From a virus, in UHGV virus genome UHGV-1581764: DNA of 11,653 nt. One strand, given 5' to 3'. Below are positions 1 through 11,653 of this stretch, piece after piece. A program made the translations under genes and the position numbers. Each line of letters begins with the position of its first letter. Position 1 is the first letter of the stretch. A model generated the notes under the pieces. The model had not been told where the DNA came from. It searched no databases and saw nothing but the letters and a program-made list of their open reading frames with translations.

Positions 1-228
1 ACGGCTGGGACGGAAGTCGCTGTCGTTCTCAAAATCGGTGGAGCTGCATGACAAAGTCATCGGGCATTATCTGAACATAAAACACTATCAATAAGTTGGA
101 GTCATTACCCATCAAGAAAACTCAAATTATGGGATGCGCTAGAGTTCCTCAAGGAATACTCACCGGAAAGAATAATATTCTATAACCTACGAAGGTTATT
201 TGTTACTTTCTGCGTAAACCTACAACTA

Positions 229-250
229 ACCTTCCTAAGTTAAGGAAGGT
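229..250 (-). terminator. Candidate intrinsic terminator hairpin downstream of the AT-rich cargo gene
   Basis: Perfect 8-bp stem ACCTTCCT/AGGAAGGT (229..236 and 243..250) with 6-nt loop. On the minus-strand transcript it lies about 33 nt past the cargo gene stop and is followed by a moderately U-rich stretch (UAGUUGUAGGUUU). The U tract is interrupted by G, so this is a weak call. Confidence 0.3.
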
Positions 251-282
251 ATTTATCATGAAGTGTAGACATAAGCGTATTA

Positions 283-1323
283 TTACATGGGCTTAACCAC
301 AACCTTTCCGTATATATCAAGTTTTGAATGTAATACGTTGACGTGAGACAATTCTTTATTCGAACTAACTTTATCTAAAATTATATTTTTATCTTTTTCA
401 GTCATGTTATACCCTAAGGTAATTTGCTTGAATGCAGAAAAAGGAATTTTCTTTAAGTTAATTTCATGATAGTCATGAAAAACATCAGGATACTCATTTA
501 ATAGGCAATCATCAATCGATGGAGAGACAATACTTCCTATCTTTCTCTCGCAATCAGCTAAAGGAAAAATAATTCTACTTTCATTTTCAGGAAGCCACTC
601 TTCACCTTTTGTATAAAGGAGCCTATTAATAAAAAGCTCGCGAACTGAATCTCGATTTAAGATCCCATGCAATGTATTATCTTTATTCTTTATATCTATA
701 TTCCTCGATGGCGCAGGATAGCCATTAAATCGCACAGCGCCTTTATAATAGGTTACAGATGCTCTATCTTCTGGATTATAACTAACATCACACGGCCTAT
801 ATATTTTGAAAAAATCGTGTGTTTCATCGAAAACTACAGCAAACCCCTTTCCTATCGATGCATAATGAGTCCACATGTGTAGATTGCAATCACTTTTTGA
901 TAGAGAGAATACACCAAGATGACAGCTTACGGCTTCTACTAAATAATCGTTAAGGTACGTTACTATTTCTTGGGGTTTAGATTCATCATATGAATCCATT
1001 GAGGTAAAACCTTCATTGATTAACAAGTGTGGAAAATCCTCTCCGTATCGTTTCCCGCAAGGTTTTAAATAATACTCTAACTCTTGTATAGATGGGACAT
1101 AAGATGGATCTCGTTGCATTTTCTTAAATTCATTTCTAGCCCATGCGTAATCGGCTGGTGAAAATTTATTAAAAAATGGAAGAAGTCGCGACTCACTCGA
1201 CGGATCATTAAGATACTTTGGTTGCGTTGCTCTAAAGAAACCATCCTCCAGACAAGATGTTCTAATGTGCATGCCCGGCCAAGGTTTTTCCATATAACTC
1301 TCGCCTATATATTTAACTAACAC
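283..1323 (-). CDS. Hypothetical protein with DUF2971-like core signature; AT-rich accessory cargo gene (candidate defence/exclusion protein)
   Basis: Longest ORF in the island, 346 codons as given. The start at 1323 is GTG with AGGA about 10 nt upstream; the first in-frame ATG is at 1293, preceded by purine-rich GGCGAGAG, so the start is uncertain. Stop TAA at 283..285. Hand counts of G+C: 15/60 (361..420) and 23/60 (901..960) inside this gene versus 30/60 (2101..2160) in darB. The segment HLGVFSLSKSDCNLHMWTHYASIGKGFAVVFD resembles, from memory, the conserved core of Pfam DUF2971; not verified by search. Confidence 0.7.
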   Translation of the reverse strand: MLVKYIGESYMEKPWPGMHIRTSCLEDGFFRATQPKYLNDPSSESRLLPFFNKFSPADYAWARNEFKKMQRDPSYVPSIQELEYYLKPCGKRYGEDFPHLLINEGFTSMDSYDESKPQEIVTYLNDYLVEAVSCHLGVFSLSKSDCNLHMWTHYASIGKGFAVVFDETHDFFKIYRPCDVSYNPEDRASVTYYKGAVRFNGYPAPSRNIDIKNKDNTLHGILNRDSVRELFINRLLYTKGEEWLPENESRIIFPLADCERKIGSIVSPSIDDCLLNEYPDVFHDYHEINLKKIPFSAFKQITLGYNMTEKDKNIILDKVSSNKELSHVNVLHSKLDIYGKVVVKPM

Positions 1324-1344
1324 TGTATATCGATCCTGTTGTTT

Positions 1345-1365
1345 AAGCCCATATCATATGGGCTT
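1345..1365. promoter_or_regulatory. 21-bp palindrome at the backbone/cargo junction; possible operator overlapping a -10-like hexamer for the cargo gene
   Basis: AAGCCCATAT-C-ATATGGGCTT has perfect 10-bp arms around one central base (checked base by base). It lies 10 nt after the lxc-like stop and about 20 nt before the cargo gene start. On the minus strand the centre reads TATGAT, a 5/6 match to the -10 consensus TATAAT. No U tract follows on either strand, so it is not a canonical terminator. Confidence 0.3.
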
Positions 1366-1375
1366 TAAATGATTA

Positions 1376-1624
1376 TTAATCAGCGTTCAGAAGCAATGCG
1401 TTATCTATGATGATCTGCTCCCATTCTTCGAATGCCCGGTCGCGGACGCCCTGGGGAACACTGTTAGTTTTGAAATCGACGACCGTCCGCCATTTTCCGT
1501 CAGGACGGTACATGCGCAGAGCTTTACTTCCCCCTTCCCTGCGCACCTCAACGTTATGCTTATCAGCAAACTCTTGCAATGCTCGTAGCGTCCCATGCTT
1601 TACTGTGTAGTATCGCTTCTTCAA
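1376..1624 (-). CDS. lxc: Lxc/Bof-like small basic protein (modulator of C1 repressor), TTG-initiated
   Basis: 82-codon ORF. The start is TTG at 1624..1622 with an SD-like GGAGAG 5 nt upstream, and it overlaps the stop of the preceding ORF (TTGA). Stop TAA at 1378..1376. Its position, two genes downstream of darB on the same strand, matches the P1 order darB-ulx-lxc as I recall it. I also recall that P1 bof/lxc is 82 codons with a TTG start; both are recollections, not sequence comparisons. Confidence 0.6.
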   Translation of the reverse strand: MKKRYYTVKHGTLRALQEFADKHNVEVRREGGSKALRMYRPDGKWRTVVDFKTNSVPQGVRDRAFEEWEQIIIDNALLLNAD

Positions 1625-2061
1625 GTTTTCTCTCCAGCCTGTGCCAAGGCTTCAACTTCCAAATCGTAAGACTCAAACTCATAGTCCTGGTCGTCAACCT
1701 CTTCAGGCACTGGCAGTAAATGCCAGGCTGAGTATATCTGACCATTATCAAAACGCTCCTGGCTGTAGAGCGTCGCGGCTATGAGTGTTAGCGCCGGGCG
1801 GTCATAACGGTAAATTTTGCGAACGTCACGATCAACGAGACGACCGAAATTACCATAACCGCGCTCCAGTAATAATTTTTTAATTTCCGGCCAGTATGGC
1901 CCATAGCTGCGGTACAGGCGGGGATTTTTAAGTAATCGCCCGCGTAGCCCTGACAGGAAGAAATCAACGTATTCGTCTTCTGTCTTTCCTAACAACGCCG
2001 TACGGAGTACCGCCTCAAGATATGTTTTATTCGGTTTTATTGTATCAGATAGTGTGGCCAT
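1621..2061 (-). CDS. Hypothetical 146-aa protein, Ulx-like by position (between darB and lxc)
   Basis: ATG at 2061..2059, 33 nt after the darB stop. Stop TGA at 1623..1621, overlapping the TTG start of the next gene. Acidic C-terminus (EEVDDQDYEFESYDLE). No recognisable catalytic motif. Backbone-like G+C. The assignment rests on gene order only. Confidence 0.6.
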   Translation of the reverse strand: MATLSDTIKPNKTYLEAVLRTALLGKTEDEYVDFFLSGLRGRLLKNPRLYRSYGPYWPEIKKLLLERGYGNFGRLVDRDVRKIYRYDRPALTLIAATLYSQERFDNGQIYSAWHLLPVPEEVDDQDYEFESYDLEVEALAQAGEKT

Positions 2062-2070
2062 ATTATGCGA

Positions 2071-2088
2071 CGCCCGGCAAACCGGGCG
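2071..2088 (-). promoter_or_regulatory. GC-rich stem-loop between darB stop and the 146-aa ORF start (possible attenuator or mRNA processing/stability element)
   Basis: CGCCCGG (2071..2077), loop CAAA, CCGGGCG (2082..2088): a perfect 7-bp all-GC stem. It sits inside the 33-nt intergenic gap directly after the darB stop TAA (2097..2095). On the minus-strand RNA it is followed by UCGCAUAAUAUG, which is not a strong U tract. Confidence 0.3.
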
Positions 2089-2094
2089 CTCCTG

Positions 2095-5000
2095 TTATGC
2101 GTATTGTTGGATGACGGCCAGAACGTCCGCCACGTTGTGTTTTGTCTCGATAATCCACCAGTTACCCGGGAAATCGCTGTTCTTCGCCTTCGCTGGCAGC
2201 CAGCGAGCGCCGAATTTCGCCTTGATTGCGTCTTTCGCACGGAAAAGAATGCCTTTCATGCCGGACGCCTCCTGAAGCCCAAATACCTCGCCAGCGGCGA
2301 ATTTTGGTGCGTACATCATCTTCAGGTCGGCGGTGGATACGCGATAATTCAGACCAAGAGACTGAGTTATGCTGGTGGCATCACCCTGTATTGATGATAA
2401 CTCTTCTTGTTTCTCGTTTCTGGCGGCAATTTCTTCCTCCGTGATGTTGCCAAGGGCCAGGTTTATCCGATCAGCGTCTGCCTGTTTCTCTTCATCGGTG
2501 CGCCCGGCAAGTACCGTGTTAATTCTGTGCAATATCTCCACATGATTCTTGCGCATGCTGAGCAACGCTGGCGTAACCTCGTTAAGGTCCACCAGCCCAA
2601 GGATGGCAAGGTCAGTAAACATTGATACCAGGTTGTAGGTCATGCGATAGCTGAGTTGCCCATAGGCTGATGGCAACTGCACCGCATCCATTTGATAGGC
2701 ATCCATAAATTTAGAGCCGTCGTTTACGACATCCGCAATTGCCGGTGTGATTTTCCCTGTGGTGGCGGCCTCCCTGATTGCTGTTACCCACGATTGAGTC
2801 AGCGCGGCGACTGCATGATTCAGATTGGCTTTCCGTTCTGCTGCAATACGCGCGCTTGCAGCGTCCATTGCCTGCTTGATCTCGTCTTTATTGCTGTAAA
2901 TGCCAATGGTGCCAAACTGTGCTGTGGTGATCTCATAATCTGACGCCCGGAACTCATGGGTACCGAAAATGGCATTGGTGACCTCAAGTTCAGAATCCCC
3001 GTTACGAGTAGCCCCCTGGCTTGTTTTCTCCGGCATTCTGGCGATCGCATCCGCTATTTTCTCCTGAATTGCTTCAGGGGATAGCGTATCTCCGTATGAC
3101 GCGATTACATCGCCATAATTGGAGCCAAACAGTTCAGTCAGGAATACTTCTGCCAAACGGACCTGGCGGTTATTCCCTTCCGACATCATACCAAGCACCC
3201 ATTTTGCAATTGACGACTTCAGCGCGCCGTCACGGCGATCCGGGTAAACCGCATGCTTCAGTGGGTCCGTATAGGTACCAACAAAATCAATGCTATAGCC
3301 TGACTCTGTAGTCTGAACGCCGTATGAGTCAGTGATTTTGATCATGCCGCGCTGCTGGAAACGGTAGAAATCGTCACAGGAAATGATGTCGTTAATCCCG
3401 GCGATGGAGACGCCACCACTGATTTTCTGCATAACAGCATCTTCATCGGGAGTTACATCCACCTGTTTATCCAGCGTCTTCACATCCCAGTTACCCGATT
3501 TGGTGCCTTTGAAGGTAAAGATGATCTCCACGTCTGCGCGCTGGCTGTCGAAGTCCAGCGACTTAATGCGAACGATATCACCGGCACAATCGTAGTATTG
3601 GCCTACACGCCATGAGCGATCGCCGATAACAAGGAACTCATTCGCATGGTTAACCAGATCAGGATCAACATCCAGAATGCCTTTATTTATTGCATCCTCC
3701 ACCAGCGGGCGCAGGCGTTTGATATCCGTCGCGGCCTTCTGAGTACGGTTCAATAATTTCTCATAGCGGGAGATGGCCTGAGAGATATTAGCCTTGCGCT
3801 GAATGGCGCTTTTCAACGACGCGCGATACTGTGCTAACAACGTACGGTCTGTGTGATGGACGCTACCCCAGCGGGCCTTCCAGTCTGCGTTATCAGCTGC
3901 TTTGGCCATTGCCGCCTGTTTGAATTTAGCTACCTCGGCGGTGGTCTTTTCAAGTTCCGCTTTGCTTCGCTCTAATTCAGCGGTAAGTACCTCCACATCC
4001 TCGCCAGCTGCGTGCTGCGCCTTGATGTAATTCTGAAGGTCGATAGTAGCCTGTTCTTTCTGGCGAGCGCGTTTCGCAGCTTTCGCCTTATCCATTTGAA
4101 CCTGCATCATTGCCAGACGTTCGCCGTCATCCTTCGCGGTATACATCTGCATTTCGATCATGTCATTGGCGTCGGCGTTCTCCATTTCCGACTTATCTGA
4201 ACGGAGGATATCGGAGATCCAGCCTGCTTTACGCTTCAGCGTCTTCAATCGGTATTCATCGAAAGACCCCTTGCCGCAGTAGTAGTGAACGCGAACGCTT
4301 GCACGGTTGGAGCCAACTCGAGCACCGCGACCGTTACGTTGTGCGATGCTGGCTGGAGTCCACGGCAACGTCAGGTGGTGGATATCCGTCGTTCCTCGAT
4401 GCAGGTTGATACCCACCTCTGCCTTTTTGTTGCAGATGATGATCGGAGTCCGGCCCTCCTGGAAGTCGGCTGCAATCTTTTCCAGACCGCCCAACGACAT
4501 TTCATTTTGCTGCGCGATATAGGCGTCATACAGAGCCATTTGCTCGTTGTATTTCGCTATCTGTGCATCTGTTGGTTCATCCGGTAGCTCTTTCGGCGGT
4601 TTAACCGCTTTCAGTTTCTTACCGGTTTTACCTGCCTCGGCAACCGTCTGAGCATTCAGGATCCCCACCTTTGAAGGTTCAAGGTTAAGAGCATTGCAGA
4701 TAATGCGCTTGAGCTTCTGGTGCTGCGTTTTTTCATCGGTGAAGATGATTTGCTTACCTTCCGGGAAAAACTCCTTCAGCGTGGCAATCAGCTTCGCGTA
4801 TTTGGGCGTAACGGGGTGAGTTACGGTCTGTTCGTCAATGCCAAACCTGGCCAGGCGCTTATTCACTTCCTGCTCGAACGCTTCCGGAACCTGTAACTGA
4901 ATAAACTCGCCCTTATCTATCAGGGAGTATTGCGATTGCTGCGTGATTGAATCATCACTGTCGTCGTCTTCGCTGGTGGCTTGTTTAGGCAAACTGTCCG

Positions 5001-8000
5001 CCAGCTGCTGCACCGCATCGGCGTACTCCGGCAGGAAACGATAGGTGATCCGGCGATAGTACAGGTCCATGTCAGTACATACGCGGTCCATATCCCTGAT
5101 TATTGAGAAGATCGGACGGGCTTTCTCGTGCTCAATCACGCCGTCTTCATTGACCGAGGTCGTTACGCCATTGTTGGCTTTGGCTGCCGCTTCCGCCTGC
5201 TGACGCAATTCTTCATACGCCGCCAGTTGTTCTTCAGTAAGTGGTGCATCCTGCTGGTGTTCGTCCAGCTCCGGGATCTCCACGGTATCCTTAACGTCTT
5301 CCGCCGTTTTAAGCGTTACCCAGCGATGGAATATACCGCGCAGCGCATCAAGGTTTTCAAAGCCCACCAGCGCCATTTTTTCTTCAACTTCACCGCTGAT
5401 TTTCTGTACCGTTTCCAGCCTGGTCTTACCGAAGAATTTAACGAAGTCATCAGGACCGTAGATCCCCATCTTCTGCCAGTATTCCTTCGGCAGAACATGA
5501 GAAAGCATGTTGTATGCATCGATCGGGGTGTTAACGACTGGCGTTGCAGTCAGGAGAACCGGCCCGCGCCCGCCATTCTTTTTCATCAGGTACGCGTTTT
5601 TAATTGCCATATCTCGCGCCGATTGCGCCACCGCGCTGGTGGGCAGATAGGCCAGCTGTGACGCTTCGCGACCATTTTTATAGCTATTGCGGTAGTTGTG
5701 GCCTTCGTCGGCGATCACGCTGTCGAAGCCCATATCCTCAAAGTACGGATACTTCTCTGCTTTTTCGGTGCCAGTATCTGAATACTCCGACAATACCCGG
5801 CGACGCGCGGCCTCTTTGCGGTGGGAGTCGGAGTCAATTGCGCTGGCTACGCGCCCGGCAGCAACGAAGTCATAAAGCATATCCTGTGCATGCTCATCTA
5901 CGGTGTCATCACGTAGCGGAATGCGGGCGTATTGTTCTTTGGTAAACACGACTGCACGGTAATTTGAGTGCGGGATCGCATTCATCCGCGCCGTGATAGT
6001 GGCTTCATCTGCCAGCTTAAGAGCATCGCGCATAACTGGAGTGCCATCAGTACCAAGAACAGGTTTACCGTTCTCATCGAGCACCGGCACCTGGCGAATC
6101 TGATCGCCATCCATCAGCACATCAAGACCGACGAACAGGTAGTTACTGAATGCCTCTTCACTCAGGAATTCTTTTGCTTCGTAATACCAGTTTTCCAGCA
6201 CTGATTTAGGCACTACATACGCAGTACGGGTGGAGCGACCGTTCTCATAGTTGAACGCCTCAAGTGCCAGCGCGGTCGTGGTTTTACCCAGCCCGGTGCC
6301 GAAGCCCAGGATGCCACGCCCATCTTCGGACAGTCGGCGCACCTCGCTATTCTGGTAATCAAATGGCTGGCGCTTACCGCTTAATCCCTTCAACCCAAGC
6401 GGATCGCCAGAGTGTTCATACGGGATATTGCTATTGAACACATCGTTGTATTTGGCAACCAGCTCATCGTAGCGATCGTGCGTCTTGATCCACTTATTGA
6501 ACTGGTCCTCAAGCAGTGCCATCTGCTCGCGGTAGCCGTTCGCCGTCGCGCTATCTTTGCCACCGATACGCGCACCATTGAGATACTTTTCCAGCTGTGC
6601 CGGGAACCCGGTCGCGTTTTCTCCTGATTTACGGTCCCACTCGTAGCGGATCTCGCCTGTTTCTTTATCCTTGCGCTGGACGACACCGTATCGGTGCCCG
6701 ACGAACAGGCCATCACCACCGTGATAGGTGTCAGAAACCATTTCGTCGCCTTCCAGCTGCACTGACTGCACATAGCGCAGATCCGGATAGCCGTTTTCCT
6801 GCAAAAATTCCAGAATGACGGAACGGTCGAACCAACGGCTATTGAGCTTAAACCGGATATTCTCTGCTGGCGTCTTGATGCGCTTCTCTTCGATCGCTGC
6901 CAGCTGATTAAGGACGTTGTTCTTTACTGGACCGTCGGGGAGCGTGGCGAGGAACTCCTGTTTTGGAGCCACTATCTCGTTAATGTCGCCGCTGGTGGCG
7001 CGGGCAAACGGAACAATCCCGCCATACGGTGAAACCGCAATGCCAGGGGTGCTGGCCAATAAATTAAGCAACTCGTCATCACTGGCTGGCAGTTCGCCGG
7101 TAAACGCAAGGCGGAAATCATCGAGCTGGATTGGATCGCGAGTGAGATCACTGTAGAGATAACGCAGGGTATCCTGATAGCTGGTGGAGTCATAACTGGC
7201 GCTGGAATCATGCGTAACCAGTTTTCCTGTCAGCTCGTCAGAAATAGTGCCATCCAGCTTAATTGCACCACGGAAAGCAAACCAGGCGCGCGCACCGCTC
7301 CCCGATAATTTCGCTATCGGACCGCGACCGGGGTTACCAAAACGGTCAATCTCTGCCTGCAAACGGGATACCAGAGAAAGGCGCTGCTGTTCGATTTGTT
7401 CAGCACTATGCCCGGCGGCCTTCATATCCTGATATTCAATTAACATCCGGCCAATCATCGCCCCACGATACAAGCGTTCACGGTATTTTTCAGGCTGGCT
7501 GTTAATCCAGTCCACCAGCTGCACCATATCGTCGCTGATTGATGTGGTGTACTTATCGCGGACATTTGCCATCTGGGTAAATGTCATACCGAGACGGCCT
7601 TCTGTTGTAGTCAGGTTACGCTGAAGAGCCTCCCAGCTATCCGCGCCATAACTGGCAACCTCAATCTTCAGCTCCTTCCCGGCATCAGCTTCAATCCAGC
7701 GACCACCAGCATATTTTTGCCATACGCCATTAATCAGGCGCATTTCCCCTTCATCAACAACATCTGCGGTCGGTGACGGTTCAGTCATATCGAGCAAAGA
7801 CCAGTCGATACGACTTTCGAAACGATGAATCAGCTTCGCTTTAAGAGCCTGGTTATCAATCTGCCCGTCGGCACGAACCTCAATACGCCCCTGGAAACCC
7901 TTCTCCTGGGTGCCATGAACAAACCGGCGGCCGTCCTTTTCGAACCACTTGCCAGAAATAAACGTTGGCCAAAGCACATTTGCCGATTCAAGAGTGCCTT

Positions 8001-8862
8001 CATCCACCAGGGGGATTTTCTCAGCCATCTCTGCCGGATGTTTACGCATCAGCACCACATCAACGACCGTACTGGTCCCGTTTGCGTCAAAAGTACCGGT
8101 AGGCAAGCGGTGAGCGCCAAGAAATTCAGCTTTACGGGATAGGCGCAGGCGTAACCGCTTCATGTTTGAACCTGAAACAATGGACGGCGGCACAATCACG
8201 CACATGAATCCGCCAGGCTTTATCTTGTCCAACATGCGGAGCATGAAGTAAGACCCCATGTCCGTTTCTTCTGCGTAAGGTTTATCGATGTTGCGTGTGT
8301 TATCACGACCACCGAACGGAACGTTACCCACCACATGGTCGAATGAATCGTTAGGCGTGCTTACAGCCAGCTGTTCGAACGGGGAAATCTGTACGCTGTC
8401 TTCCGGGTGTAACAGCTGGTTTATACGACCGGAAACACTGCTGATCTCAGTCGCGGTCATCACCGTACCAACCGGTTTTGTCTCATTAAAAACGCCGGTG
8501 CCCGCCGATGGTTCCAGAGTATTACCTACGTCCGCGCCATAGAGCTTCATGATCTCCCAGACACCTTCAGCGATAGGCTTTGGTGTGTAATATTCGGAGA
8601 CGGACCCGCCAATGCCGCCTTCGCCGGTGTACCCAGCCAGGATCTGGCGCTGTTCATCTGTCAGTGTCGCGCCGTCCACCAGCGAATTAAGCAAATCTAT
8701 CGCCTTCTGATTCGCCTCCCGGCGTAGTCGGTCATAGCTTTTGCCTTCCACCTTTTCCACGCCGTATCTAATCGGCGCTCGGTGAGATGTTATTGCCCTA
8801 ATGTATTTCAATATTTCGCTGACACTTGAACAGCGAAACACCCCCATAGATAGCTTGTTCAT
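2095..8862 (-). CDS. darB: DarB-like antirestriction protein: N-terminal N6-adenine methyltransferase-like domain fused to an SF2 DExH helicase, with a long C-terminal extension
   Basis: Uninterrupted 2255-codon ORF. ATG at 8862..8860 with AAGGA 6 nt upstream; stop TAA at 2097..2095. Methyltransferase motif I LEPSAGTGVF is encoded at 8488..8517 and a motif IV-like FDHVVGNVPFGG at about 8310..8340. Helicase Walker A GTGLGKTTT is at 6274..6300, DEGH at 5698..5709, TATP(V)VN follows, and the motif VI-like QRNGRGAR is at 4318..4341. This architecture and the length match what I recall for phage P1 DarB (about 250 kDa, methyltransferase plus helicase). Confidence 0.9.
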   Translation of the reverse strand: MNKLSMGVFRCSSVSEILKYIRAITSHRAPIRYGVEKVEGKSYDRLRREANQKAIDLLNSLVDGATLTDEQRQILAGYTGEGGIGGSVSEYYTPKPIAEGVWEIMKLYGADVGNTLEPSAGTGVFNETKPVGTVMTATEISSVSGRINQLLHPEDSVQISPFEQLAVSTPNDSFDHVVGNVPFGGRDNTRNIDKPYAEETDMGSYFMLRMLDKIKPGGFMCVIVPPSIVSGSNMKRLRLRLSRKAEFLGAHRLPTGTFDANGTSTVVDVVLMRKHPAEMAEKIPLVDEGTLESANVLWPTFISGKWFEKDGRRFVHGTQEKGFQGRIEVRADGQIDNQALKAKLIHRFESRIDWSLLDMTEPSPTADVVDEGEMRLINGVWQKYAGGRWIEADAGKELKIEVASYGADSWEALQRNLTTTEGRLGMTFTQMANVRDKYTTSISDDMVQLVDWINSQPEKYRERLYRGAMIGRMLIEYQDMKAAGHSAEQIEQQRLSLVSRLQAEIDRFGNPGRGPIAKLSGSGARAWFAFRGAIKLDGTISDELTGKLVTHDSSASYDSTSYQDTLRYLYSDLTRDPIQLDDFRLAFTGELPASDDELLNLLASTPGIAVSPYGGIVPFARATSGDINEIVAPKQEFLATLPDGPVKNNVLNQLAAIEEKRIKTPAENIRFKLNSRWFDRSVILEFLQENGYPDLRYVQSVQLEGDEMVSDTYHGGDGLFVGHRYGVVQRKDKETGEIRYEWDRKSGENATGFPAQLEKYLNGARIGGKDSATANGYREQMALLEDQFNKWIKTHDRYDELVAKYNDVFNSNIPYEHSGDPLGLKGLSGKRQPFDYQNSEVRRLSEDGRGILGFGTGLGKTTTALALEAFNYENGRSTRTAYVVPKSVLENWYYEAKEFLSEEAFSNYLFVGLDVLMDGDQIRQVPVLDENGKPVLGTDGTPVMRDALKLADEATITARMNAIPHSNYRAVVFTKEQYARIPLRDDTVDEHAQDMLYDFVAAGRVASAIDSDSHRKEAARRRVLSEYSDTGTEKAEKYPYFEDMGFDSVIADEGHNYRNSYKNGREASQLAYLPTSAVAQSARDMAIKNAYLMKKNGGRGPVLLTATPVVNTPIDAYNMLSHVLPKEYWQKMGIYGPDDFVKFFGKTRLETVQKISGEVEEKMALVGFENLDALRGIFHRWVTLKTAEDVKDTVEIPELDEHQQDAPLTEEQLAAYEELRQQAEAAAKANNGVTTSVNEDGVIEHEKARPIFSIIRDMDRVCTDMDLYYRRITYRFLPEYADAVQQLADSLPKQATSEDDDSDDSITQQSQYSLIDKGEFIQLQVPEAFEQEVNKRLARFGIDEQTVTHPVTPKYAKLIATLKEFFPEGKQIIFTDEKTQHQKLKRIICNALNLEPSKVGILNAQTVAEAGKTGKKLKAVKPPKELPDEPTDAQIAKYNEQMALYDAYIAQQNEMSLGGLEKIAADFQEGRTPIIICNKKAEVGINLHRGTTDIHHLTLPWTPASIAQRNGRGARVGSNRASVRVHYYCGKGSFDEYRLKTLKRKAGWISDILRSDKSEMENADANDMIEMQMYTAKDDGERLAMMQVQMDKAKAAKRARQKEQATIDLQNYIKAQHAAGEDVEVLTAELERSKAELEKTTAEVAKFKQAAMAKAADNADWKARWGSVHHTDRTLLAQYRASLKSAIQRKANISQAISRYEKLLNRTQKAATDIKRLRPLVEDAINKGILDVDPDLVNHANEFLVIGDRSWRVGQYYDCAGDIVRIKSLDFDSQRADVEIIFTFKGTKSGNWDVKTLDKQVDVTPDEDAVMQKISGGVSIAGINDIISCDDFYRFQQRGMIKITDSYGVQTTESGYSIDFVGTYTDPLKHAVYPDRRDGALKSSIAKWVLGMMSEGNNRQVRLAEVFLTELFGSNYGDVIASYGDTLSPEAIQEKIADAIARMPEKTSQGATRNGDSELEVTNAIFGTHEFRASDYEITTAQFGTIGIYSNKDEIKQAMDAASARIAAERKANLNHAVAALTQSWVTAIREAATTGKITPAIADVVNDGSKFMDAYQMDAVQLPSAYGQLSYRMTYNLVSMFTDLAILGLVDLNEVTPALLSMRKNHVEILHRINTVLAGRTDEEKQADADRINLALGNITEEEIAARNEKQEELSSIQGDATSITQSLGLNYRVSTADLKMMYAPKFAAGEVFGLQEASGMKGILFRAKDAIKAKFGARWLPAKAKNSDFPGNWWIIETKHNVADVLAVIQQYA

Positions 8863-11645
<2,783 letters not shown>

Positions 11646-11653
11646 CACCCTCC

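Follow-up and report, generated by a model that had tools for sequence, protein, structure and literature searches.

A stretch of 11,653 nucleotides from the UHGV virus genome UHGV-1581764 (the window) was analysed. It is part of a P1-like phage-plasmid in which the genes mat and lxc flank a variable slot. In the window this slot is occupied by a 1.2-kb AT-rich cassette with a single gene (positions 186-1375). We are highly confident that this gene is cargo and encodes a DUF2971 protein with an ADP-ribosyltransferase (ART) fold. Judged by sequence features and a structure model, it most likely provides a single-gene anti-phage defence; to this explanation as a whole, including the mechanism proposed below, we assign a probability of about 0.6. 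The gene adds another member to a family which has a published ART prediction, a candidate entry in PADLOC and one validated member; it is not a new system.

A one-gene cassette between mat and lxc

The G+C content of region 110-1375 is 0.352 against 0.521 in the backbone (1376-11653). In 181 backbone windows, matched in length to 110-1375, G+C was 0.504-0.546 and none was below 0.504. With a 200-bp sliding window, G+C was 0.27-0.40 at about 100-1400 and 0.47-0.56 beyond 1400. This confirmed the G+C drop noticed in a preliminary description of this DNA that was made from the letters alone; the island start at position 52 given there, however, falls within the end of an IS1 element (1-109). The AT-rich region has a single long open reading frame (ORF), 283-1323 on the minus strand, as described (346 amino acids (aa), GTG start). 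Its G+C is 0.353, and 0.282 at third codon positions (GC3). The layout of the window is as follows:

1-109, terminal part of IS1, crosses the left edge, inverted-repeat end at 109; not cargo
110-185, plus strand, 3' end of mat, last 24 codons and stop; colinear with the Mat coding sequence (CDS) of MH422554
229-250, hairpin, 8-bp stem and 6-nt loop, between the convergent mat and DUF2971 genes
283-1323, minus strand, DUF2971 gene, 346 aa, GTG start
1334-1337, minus strand, AGGA, possible Shine-Dalgarno sequence as read from the letters, 10 nt before the GTG
1342-1368, palindrome, its core at 1345-1365 perfect; located in the 52 nt that separate lxc from the DUF2971 gene
1376-1624, minus strand, lxc (modulator of C1), right-hand backbone flank
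1621-2061, minus strand, ulx (Ulx-like anti-restriction), backbone
2095-8862, minus strand, darB, 2255 aa, intact, backbone

To the right of darB follow prt and then pro. Starting at 1376, all of the remaining sequence shares 98% identity with P1 and relatives; the backbone check against P1 proposed in the preliminary description matched lxc-ulx-darB-prt at this identity. P1 homology begins precisely at the lxc stop codon (1376). Similarly, in comparisons with P1, P7, SJ46, RCS47, JL22, 673R5, 813R1 and Ro157c2YLVW homology started at most 4 bp from this stop codon. The gene order in P1 (NC_005856) is mat, res, mod (with IS5), lxc, ulx, darB. Thus, the order res-mod-lxc-ulx-darB given in the preliminary description was correct.

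At the left, 1-109 is 100% identical to the ends of IS1 in many records. IS1 interrupts mat 24 codons ahead of its stop; therefore the maturation-control gene is disrupted or truncated in this element. The IS1-mat junction was absent from the records of the plasmid database PLSDB. Two P1-like records, MH422554 and MH445380, have the same island, and their Mat CDS is colinear with 110-185. In MH422554 the similarity to P1 ends within mat, 118 nt ahead of the mat stop codon. The C-terminus of Mat is homologous to that of P1 Mat, but its last ~40 residues have diverged. The segment 110-185 (G+C 0.355) is not itself cargo but accompanies it, as an AT-rich and diverged version of the mat 3' end. 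Cassette and diverged mat 3' end together form a variable segment of 1.3 kb which is intact in relatives, where it measures 1308 bp and begins 43 bp left of the IS1 junction. IS1 has removed the first 43 bp of this segment and cut it off from the rest of mat. The earlier suggestion that the island may continue beyond the left edge was not upheld because 1-109 is IS1 and the variable segment of intact relatives starts only 43 bp further left.

We examined which genes the relatives carry between mat and lxc:

P1, P7 and 813R1, type III restriction-modification (R-M)
SJ46 and 673R5, a 373-aa RelA/SpoT protein (PADLOC PDC-S33)
JL22, a 316-aa protein with a weak PDC-S34 match (3510-4460)
Ro157c2YLVW, two uncharacterised genes (1725-3299)
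RCS47, nothing (39 bp)

The 813R1 genes matched type III R-M profiles with E = 0 and 1e-147. The SJ46 protein is evidently CapRelSJ46, because the literature places this fused toxin-antitoxin, a validated defence, in phage SJ46 (PMC9712102). As the contents differ between relatives (R-M, CapRel, others, none), we consider the mat-lxc slot as an exchange point for defence genes expressed in the lysogen. Both positional claims of the preliminary description were thus borne out, i.e. that the gene stands in place of P1 res/mod (comparison with P1 and P7) and that the locus varies among P1 relatives (eight relatives).

The frequency of the island was determined in 5426 complete E. coli genomes and in PLSDB. 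In PLSDB, 90 plasmids carried island DNA of 95-99.9% identity; their hosts belong to Escherichia, Salmonella, Shigella and Klebsiella. The island was detected in 63 of the E. coli genomes, nearly always plasmid-borne, and the neighbouring lxc-ulx-darB segment in 699. From 63 versus about 699 genomes it follows that ~9% of the E. coli P1-like elements carry the island allele. This is not the distribution of a core gene conserved in P1-like phages and agrees with the view of an AT-rich accessory cargo which replaces res/mod. Among the carriers are E. coli of commensal and environmental origin, isolated from chickens, wastewater and soil.

The DUF2971 protein and its homologues

The assignment to DUF2971, made in the preliminary description, is supported by a Pfam scan. 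PF11185 was matched with 28.4 bits (E = 4.3e-6; gathering cut-off 22 bits) over the entire model (1-89 of 89) by residues 150-251. Four PADLOC profiles of the family PDC-S31 matched, the best being PDLC04994 (E = 2.1e-16) and PDLC04990 (E = 2.4e-14); these best matches span part of the protein only. Domains of restriction endonucleases, methyltransferases or nucleases/helicases were not matched in the PADLOC and Pfam profiles. In PHROGs the sole match was phrog_1762, function unknown, and no family was matched in an NCBIfam scan. RefSeq already labels the same gene as DUF2971 domain-containing protein. There, the CDS predicted by PGAP starts at ATG 1293 (336 aa, e.g. NZ_CP080135.1). We favour GTG 1323 (346 aa) as start because the homologues begin with MLVKY, a predicted beta-strand.

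Among 5.8 billion proteins searched, 76 homologues were detected. One of them, a cluster with 839 members, is 98% identical and is named DUF2971 domain-containing protein from Salmonella enterica. The remaining homologues are 36-54% identical, nearly all have 340-355 aa, and they originate from Klebsiella, Serratia, Salmonella, Citrobacter, Enterobacter, Vibrio, Shewanella and others. All 75 aligned homologues matched PF11185 and no other ART family was detected among them. Across ~90 plasmids the intact ORF is conserved with 98-99% identity. Together with the invariance of catalytic-type residues in homologues of 37-51% identity (see below) this indicates purifying selection on the gene.

In literature on lxc, darB, phage P1 and defence no description of the gene in P1-like elements was found. 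Similarly, none of the DUF2971 literature that was found concerns P1-like elements, and no mention of PDC-S31 was found.

The protein is predicted to have an ART fold

An AlphaFold2 model based on a 75-sequence alignment had a mean predicted local distance difference test score (pLDDT) of 91.9 and a predicted template modelling score (pTM) of 0.86. In this model the N-terminal ~255 residues adopt an ART fold with the split beta-sheet core which in ARTs binds nicotinamide adenine dinucleotide (NAD+). As modelled, the fold is nearest to the nucleic-acid-modifying enzymes DarT and Tpt1. The structural neighbours and their scores were:

M. tuberculosis DarT, 8.4
yeast Tpt1, 8.1
Thermus DarT, 8.1
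Thermosipho DarTG, 7.0
SopF, 6.7
E. coli DarT1, 6.4
Rhs toxin TreX, 6.0
two further Tpt1/KptA proteins, 5.8 and 5.6
Scabin, 5.2
OspC3, 5.1

The ART core is interrupted by a helical insert (56-133) and again at about residues 205-225, which are highly variable and modelled with low confidence. The same arrangement of core interruptions has been described for DUF2971 (PMC12522546). A C-terminal alpha/beta domain (~257-346) had no recognisable fold.

Three stretches are candidates for the ART motifs I to III. Candidate motif I is F30-R31-x-T33-Q34-P35 at a strand end. Candidate motif II, S140-L-S142, is located at the end of strand 136-142 and is followed by W151 and Y154. Candidate motif III, E246-x-E248-x-R250, is at the start of strand 248-254. 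The order, two strands and then an ExE at a strand start, is that expected of ART motifs I-III. R31 was conserved in 74 of the 75 homologues, and T33, S140, Y154, E246, E248 and R250 in all of them; S142 was present in 50, otherwise Cys or Ala was found. These stretches are the most conserved parts of the alignment. The most variable segments are 205-225 and 256-285.

A profile of the 75 homologues compared with all PDB sequences yielded no match at E <= 10. Therefore, the link to ARTs is a structural one. When the full model was compared with predicted viral structures (BFVD) using Foldseek, nothing was retrieved at E <= 0.001. DUF2971 has been predicted as an ART which resembles DarT, AbiGi and Tox-ART-HYD1 in sequence; its Tyr was described as conserved, an ExE motif as present and the motif-I His as poorly conserved (PMC12522546). 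Our model agrees with this prediction. Thus, the statement in the preliminary description that no mechanism has been described for such a protein is outdated.

Genomic contexts of homologues

The homologues of 46-51% identity which we examined are single genes with ~35% G+C in genomes of 54-57%. In Salmonella, the homologue (46% identity) is an opposite-strand moron of a P2-like prophage. The insert (8001-9050), with 35% G+C, separates gpV, which codes for the baseplate spike, from the tail-completion gene gpS. The gene therefore has a fixed moron slot in another, unrelated prophage family as well. In Serratia, the homologue lies beside smpB where a prophage ends, and it adjoins a PDC-S64 gene; in Klebsiella it adjoins a HEC-04-type ATPase.

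A distant DUF2971 gene is present in Salmonella phage SSU5 (NC_018843.1, 5001-5759). It codes for 252 aa with about 26% identity and is devoid of the C-terminal domain. The gene is co-oriented among parA-like, dnaB and primase genes, its G+C is 0.48 compared to 0.495 in the flanks, and it looks like a resident rather than cargo. Matches below 60% identity were found in 152 PLSDB records, largely from Klebsiella and Enterobacter, and most of them appear to be of the SSU5 type.

Comparison with known systems

Aristaios is a 316-aa DUF2971 protein with a predicted ART fold, encoded by the lactococcal plasmid pUCCL641_199 (Grafakou et al., 2024; PMC11381338). It was experimentally shown to confer phage resistance of the abortive-infection type as a single gene (PMC11381338), and according to a 2026 review it interferes with phage transcription (PMC11381338; PMC13064643). 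Aristaios and the window protein share the single-gene format on a mobile element, size (316 vs 346 aa), Pfam DUF2971 and the predicted ART fold. They differ in that Aristaios is from a Gram-positive host and a conventional plasmid whereas we are dealing with a phage-plasmid. In a tblastn search of PLSDB, Lactococcus was not among the ten organisms named in the output.

DarT, the ssDNA-modifying ART of DarTG toxin-antitoxin systems, is the nearest structural neighbour, yet it was not matched at the sequence level (Pfam, homologue set, PDB profile search). The window protein differs by its large helical inserts, by an additional C-terminal domain and in motif I apparently by R instead of H. In addition, DarTG has the macrodomain antitoxin DarG; here, the neighbours of the DUF2971 gene are mat and lxc and a DarG macrodomain gene is not adjacent. 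PDC-S31 is similar with respect to the four matching profiles and the single-gene architecture.

CapRelSJ46 uses the same mat-lxc slot. It joins a toxic enzyme and its own regulatory or sensor region in one polypeptide, and it was a PADLOC candidate (PDC-S33) which was later validated. However, it is a RelA/SpoT-type pyrophosphokinase that acts on tRNA, it has an unrelated fold and chemistry and is encoded on the opposite strand. Thus, the resemblance is positional and architectural only. Lastly, EcoP1I and EcoP7I (res, mod) share the slot and the presumed role of a lysogen-expressed barrier to incoming DNA. They consist of two large genes (~5 kb) for a nuclease/helicase and a methyltransferase, whereas the window gene lacks such domains.

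Signals around the gene

The hairpin at 229-250, already recognised in the preliminary description, was recovered by inverted-repeat and terminator scans and folds on both strands. It was the only terminator-like site within 1-2200 and likely is a bidirectional terminator. The palindrome reported at 1345-1365 is indeed perfect, with 10-nt arms which extend to 13 nt at 1342-1368. As RNA, 1342-1368 had a folding energy of -12.1 kcal/mol (z = -3.2; 1 of 200 shuffled sequences was equally stable). In the mRNA it folds into a 9-bp hairpin without a subsequent U-tract; the T-rich tail is on the plus strand where no gene needs to be terminated. As no U-tract follows on the minus strand, a canonical intrinsic terminator of lxc was rejected. 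The palindrome belongs to the island and not to the P1 backbone. It may be a partial terminator or insulator, an RNA stabiliser or an operator. In the upstream regions of three homologues elsewhere, no shared hairpin was detected.

The hexamers of the annotated promoters P1lxc and P2lxc are identical to those of P1. In the -10 hexamer of P3lxc (1992-1997) CATTGT of P1 is replaced by CGTTGT. A promoter scan of the minus strand detected no sigma-70-like site between lxc and the ORF. The position at the lxc 3' end which is equivalent to P2mod of P1 reads ACGCAT-17-TAATAA, which is weak. Because the leader hairpin lacks a U-tract on the mRNA strand, read-through from lxc is plausible. The island was searched for an ORF that might encode a partner or antitoxin, and none was found; its intergenic spacers measure 97 and 52 nt and contain no conserved small ORFs. 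An Rfam scan of the whole window detected no RNA family.

A possible defence mechanism and its alternatives

The matches to PDC-S31, the slot-mates R-M and CapRelSJ46, the contexts of the homologues and the validated family member Aristaios point toward defence. That the gene is a defence gene is probable, slightly more so than the complete explanation of which the following mechanism is a part. In the lysogen, the prophage would express the gene. Transcription would start either at the conserved lxc promoters and read through, or at a promoter located at the 3' end of lxc like P2mod of P1. The protein would be inactive until a superinfecting phage triggers its activity. The activated enzyme would then use NAD+ to ADP-ribosylate DNA or RNA of phage or host or, less likely, an essential protein; a nucleic acid as the substrate has somewhat less than an even chance. 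The modification would halt phage gene expression or replication and abort the infection, and this would protect the lysogen population and the resident P1-like element. Because an antitoxin gene is absent, control must reside within the protein itself. Candidates for trigger sensing or autoinhibition are the segments 205-225 and 256-285 and the C-terminal domain. Such self-control would be analogous to that of CapRelSJ46, the toxin-antitoxin fusion encoded at this position in SJ46. Possibly, the protein is a self-contained sensor-effector, i.e. a DarT-like nucleic-acid ART with an R-S-ExE site which is autoinhibited by its C-terminus and released by binding of a phage protein. We regard this detailed scheme as speculative and, taken with all its parts, as rather unlikely. 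If true, it would represent a new mode of autoinhibition and sensing for ART toxins and a new nucleic-acid modification in immunity.

Several observations weigh against the defence reading. The Pfam score is modest and PF11185 covers only residues 150-251. PADLOC PDC families are computational candidates, and this applies to PDC-S31, which is a candidate family rather than a validated one. The candidate motif residues were placed by sequence order and secondary structure and not by their position in three dimensions. Further, the published DUF2971 consensus is a modified H-Y-E whereas the clade examined here looks like R-S-ExE; for this reason the assignment of motifs I and II is tentative. 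Aristaios and the window protein were compared by Pfam membership and are probably related at the family level only. Because the SSU5-like gene looks resident, DUF2971 proteins are not necessarily defence genes. Finally, the gene is situated directly downstream of darB-ulx-lxc, the phage's own counter-defence, and in the same orientation.

The last two points lead to the question whether the ART-like protein serves the phage. It might act in host takeover or counter-defence during P1 infection, like Alt, ModA and ModB of T4, a phage for which the offensive use of ARTs is established. Possibly, it is produced together with the products of the neighbouring anti-restriction (Dar) genes darB-ulx and acts on host targets. 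In fact, a canonical terminator is absent from the 52 nt which separate the gene from the co-oriented darB-ulx-lxc, and the G+C-matched distant DUF2971 gene of SSU5-like phage-plasmids resides inside a parA-dnaB-primase module. On the other hand, only ~9% of the E. coli P1-like elements have the gene, with R-M or CapRel in its place in others. Its homologues reside beside defence candidates in chromosomal islands, and in unrelated prophages they are morons on the opposite strand. Predicted viral proteins provided no structural match (BFVD, E <= 0.001), and the single family member tested, Aristaios, acts as a defence. We consider a phage-serving role, with or without co-expression with darB-ulx, as improbable.

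Even less probable is that the gene is an addiction toxin or a selfish passenger which stabilises plasmid or cassette, or else a decaying, non-functional remnant. ART-fold toxins such as DarT arrest growth, and a low-copy plasmid prophage is the type of element that benefits from addiction modules; besides, the neighbouring mat has already been disrupted by IS1. Yet, the island has no antitoxin ORF, and the DUF2971 ORF is intact and strongly conserved, with invariant catalytic-type residues. For some DUF2971 proteins from Legionella and other pathogens it has been proposed that they are secreted or injected virulence effectors which ADP-ribosylate eukaryotic targets. For the window protein this has a very small chance indeed: the top structural neighbours are ARTs acting on nucleic acids, the carriers include commensal and environmental E. 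coli, and the contexts are prophages and defence islands, not secretion-system loci. An anti-phage defence is the explanation we prefer.

DUF2971 is a very large family, found in ~6,000 species in a Legionella survey, and one member has been tested so far. The allele described here is present in about one of every eleven P1-like elements of E. coli, with humans, poultry and wastewater as sources. It is located in a genetically tractable E. coli phage-plasmid, in a slot which already gave the textbook R-M system and CapRelSJ46. Because of tractability, productive slot and common occurrence it would be a convenient model to study the targets of DUF2971 ARTs, the silencing of a toxin without antitoxin and the swapping of defence cassettes at a fixed phage-plasmid site. 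The practical stakes are modest; the gene could affect phage susceptibility and P1 transduction in carrier strains.

Other occupants of the slot

The slot genes of JL22 and Ro157c2YLVW are candidates for further defence genes. The PDC-S34 match of the 316-aa JL22 protein is weak and partial. In Ro157c2YLVW a 199-aa protein and a 240-aa helix-turn-helix protein are encoded, neither with a PADLOC match. In vB_EcoM-673R5 (6843-7942), the CapRel-type gene is annotated as two ORFs of 182 and 180 aa. These match the N- and C-terminal halves of PDC-S33, which suggests that the gene was split by a frameshift or a sequencing error.

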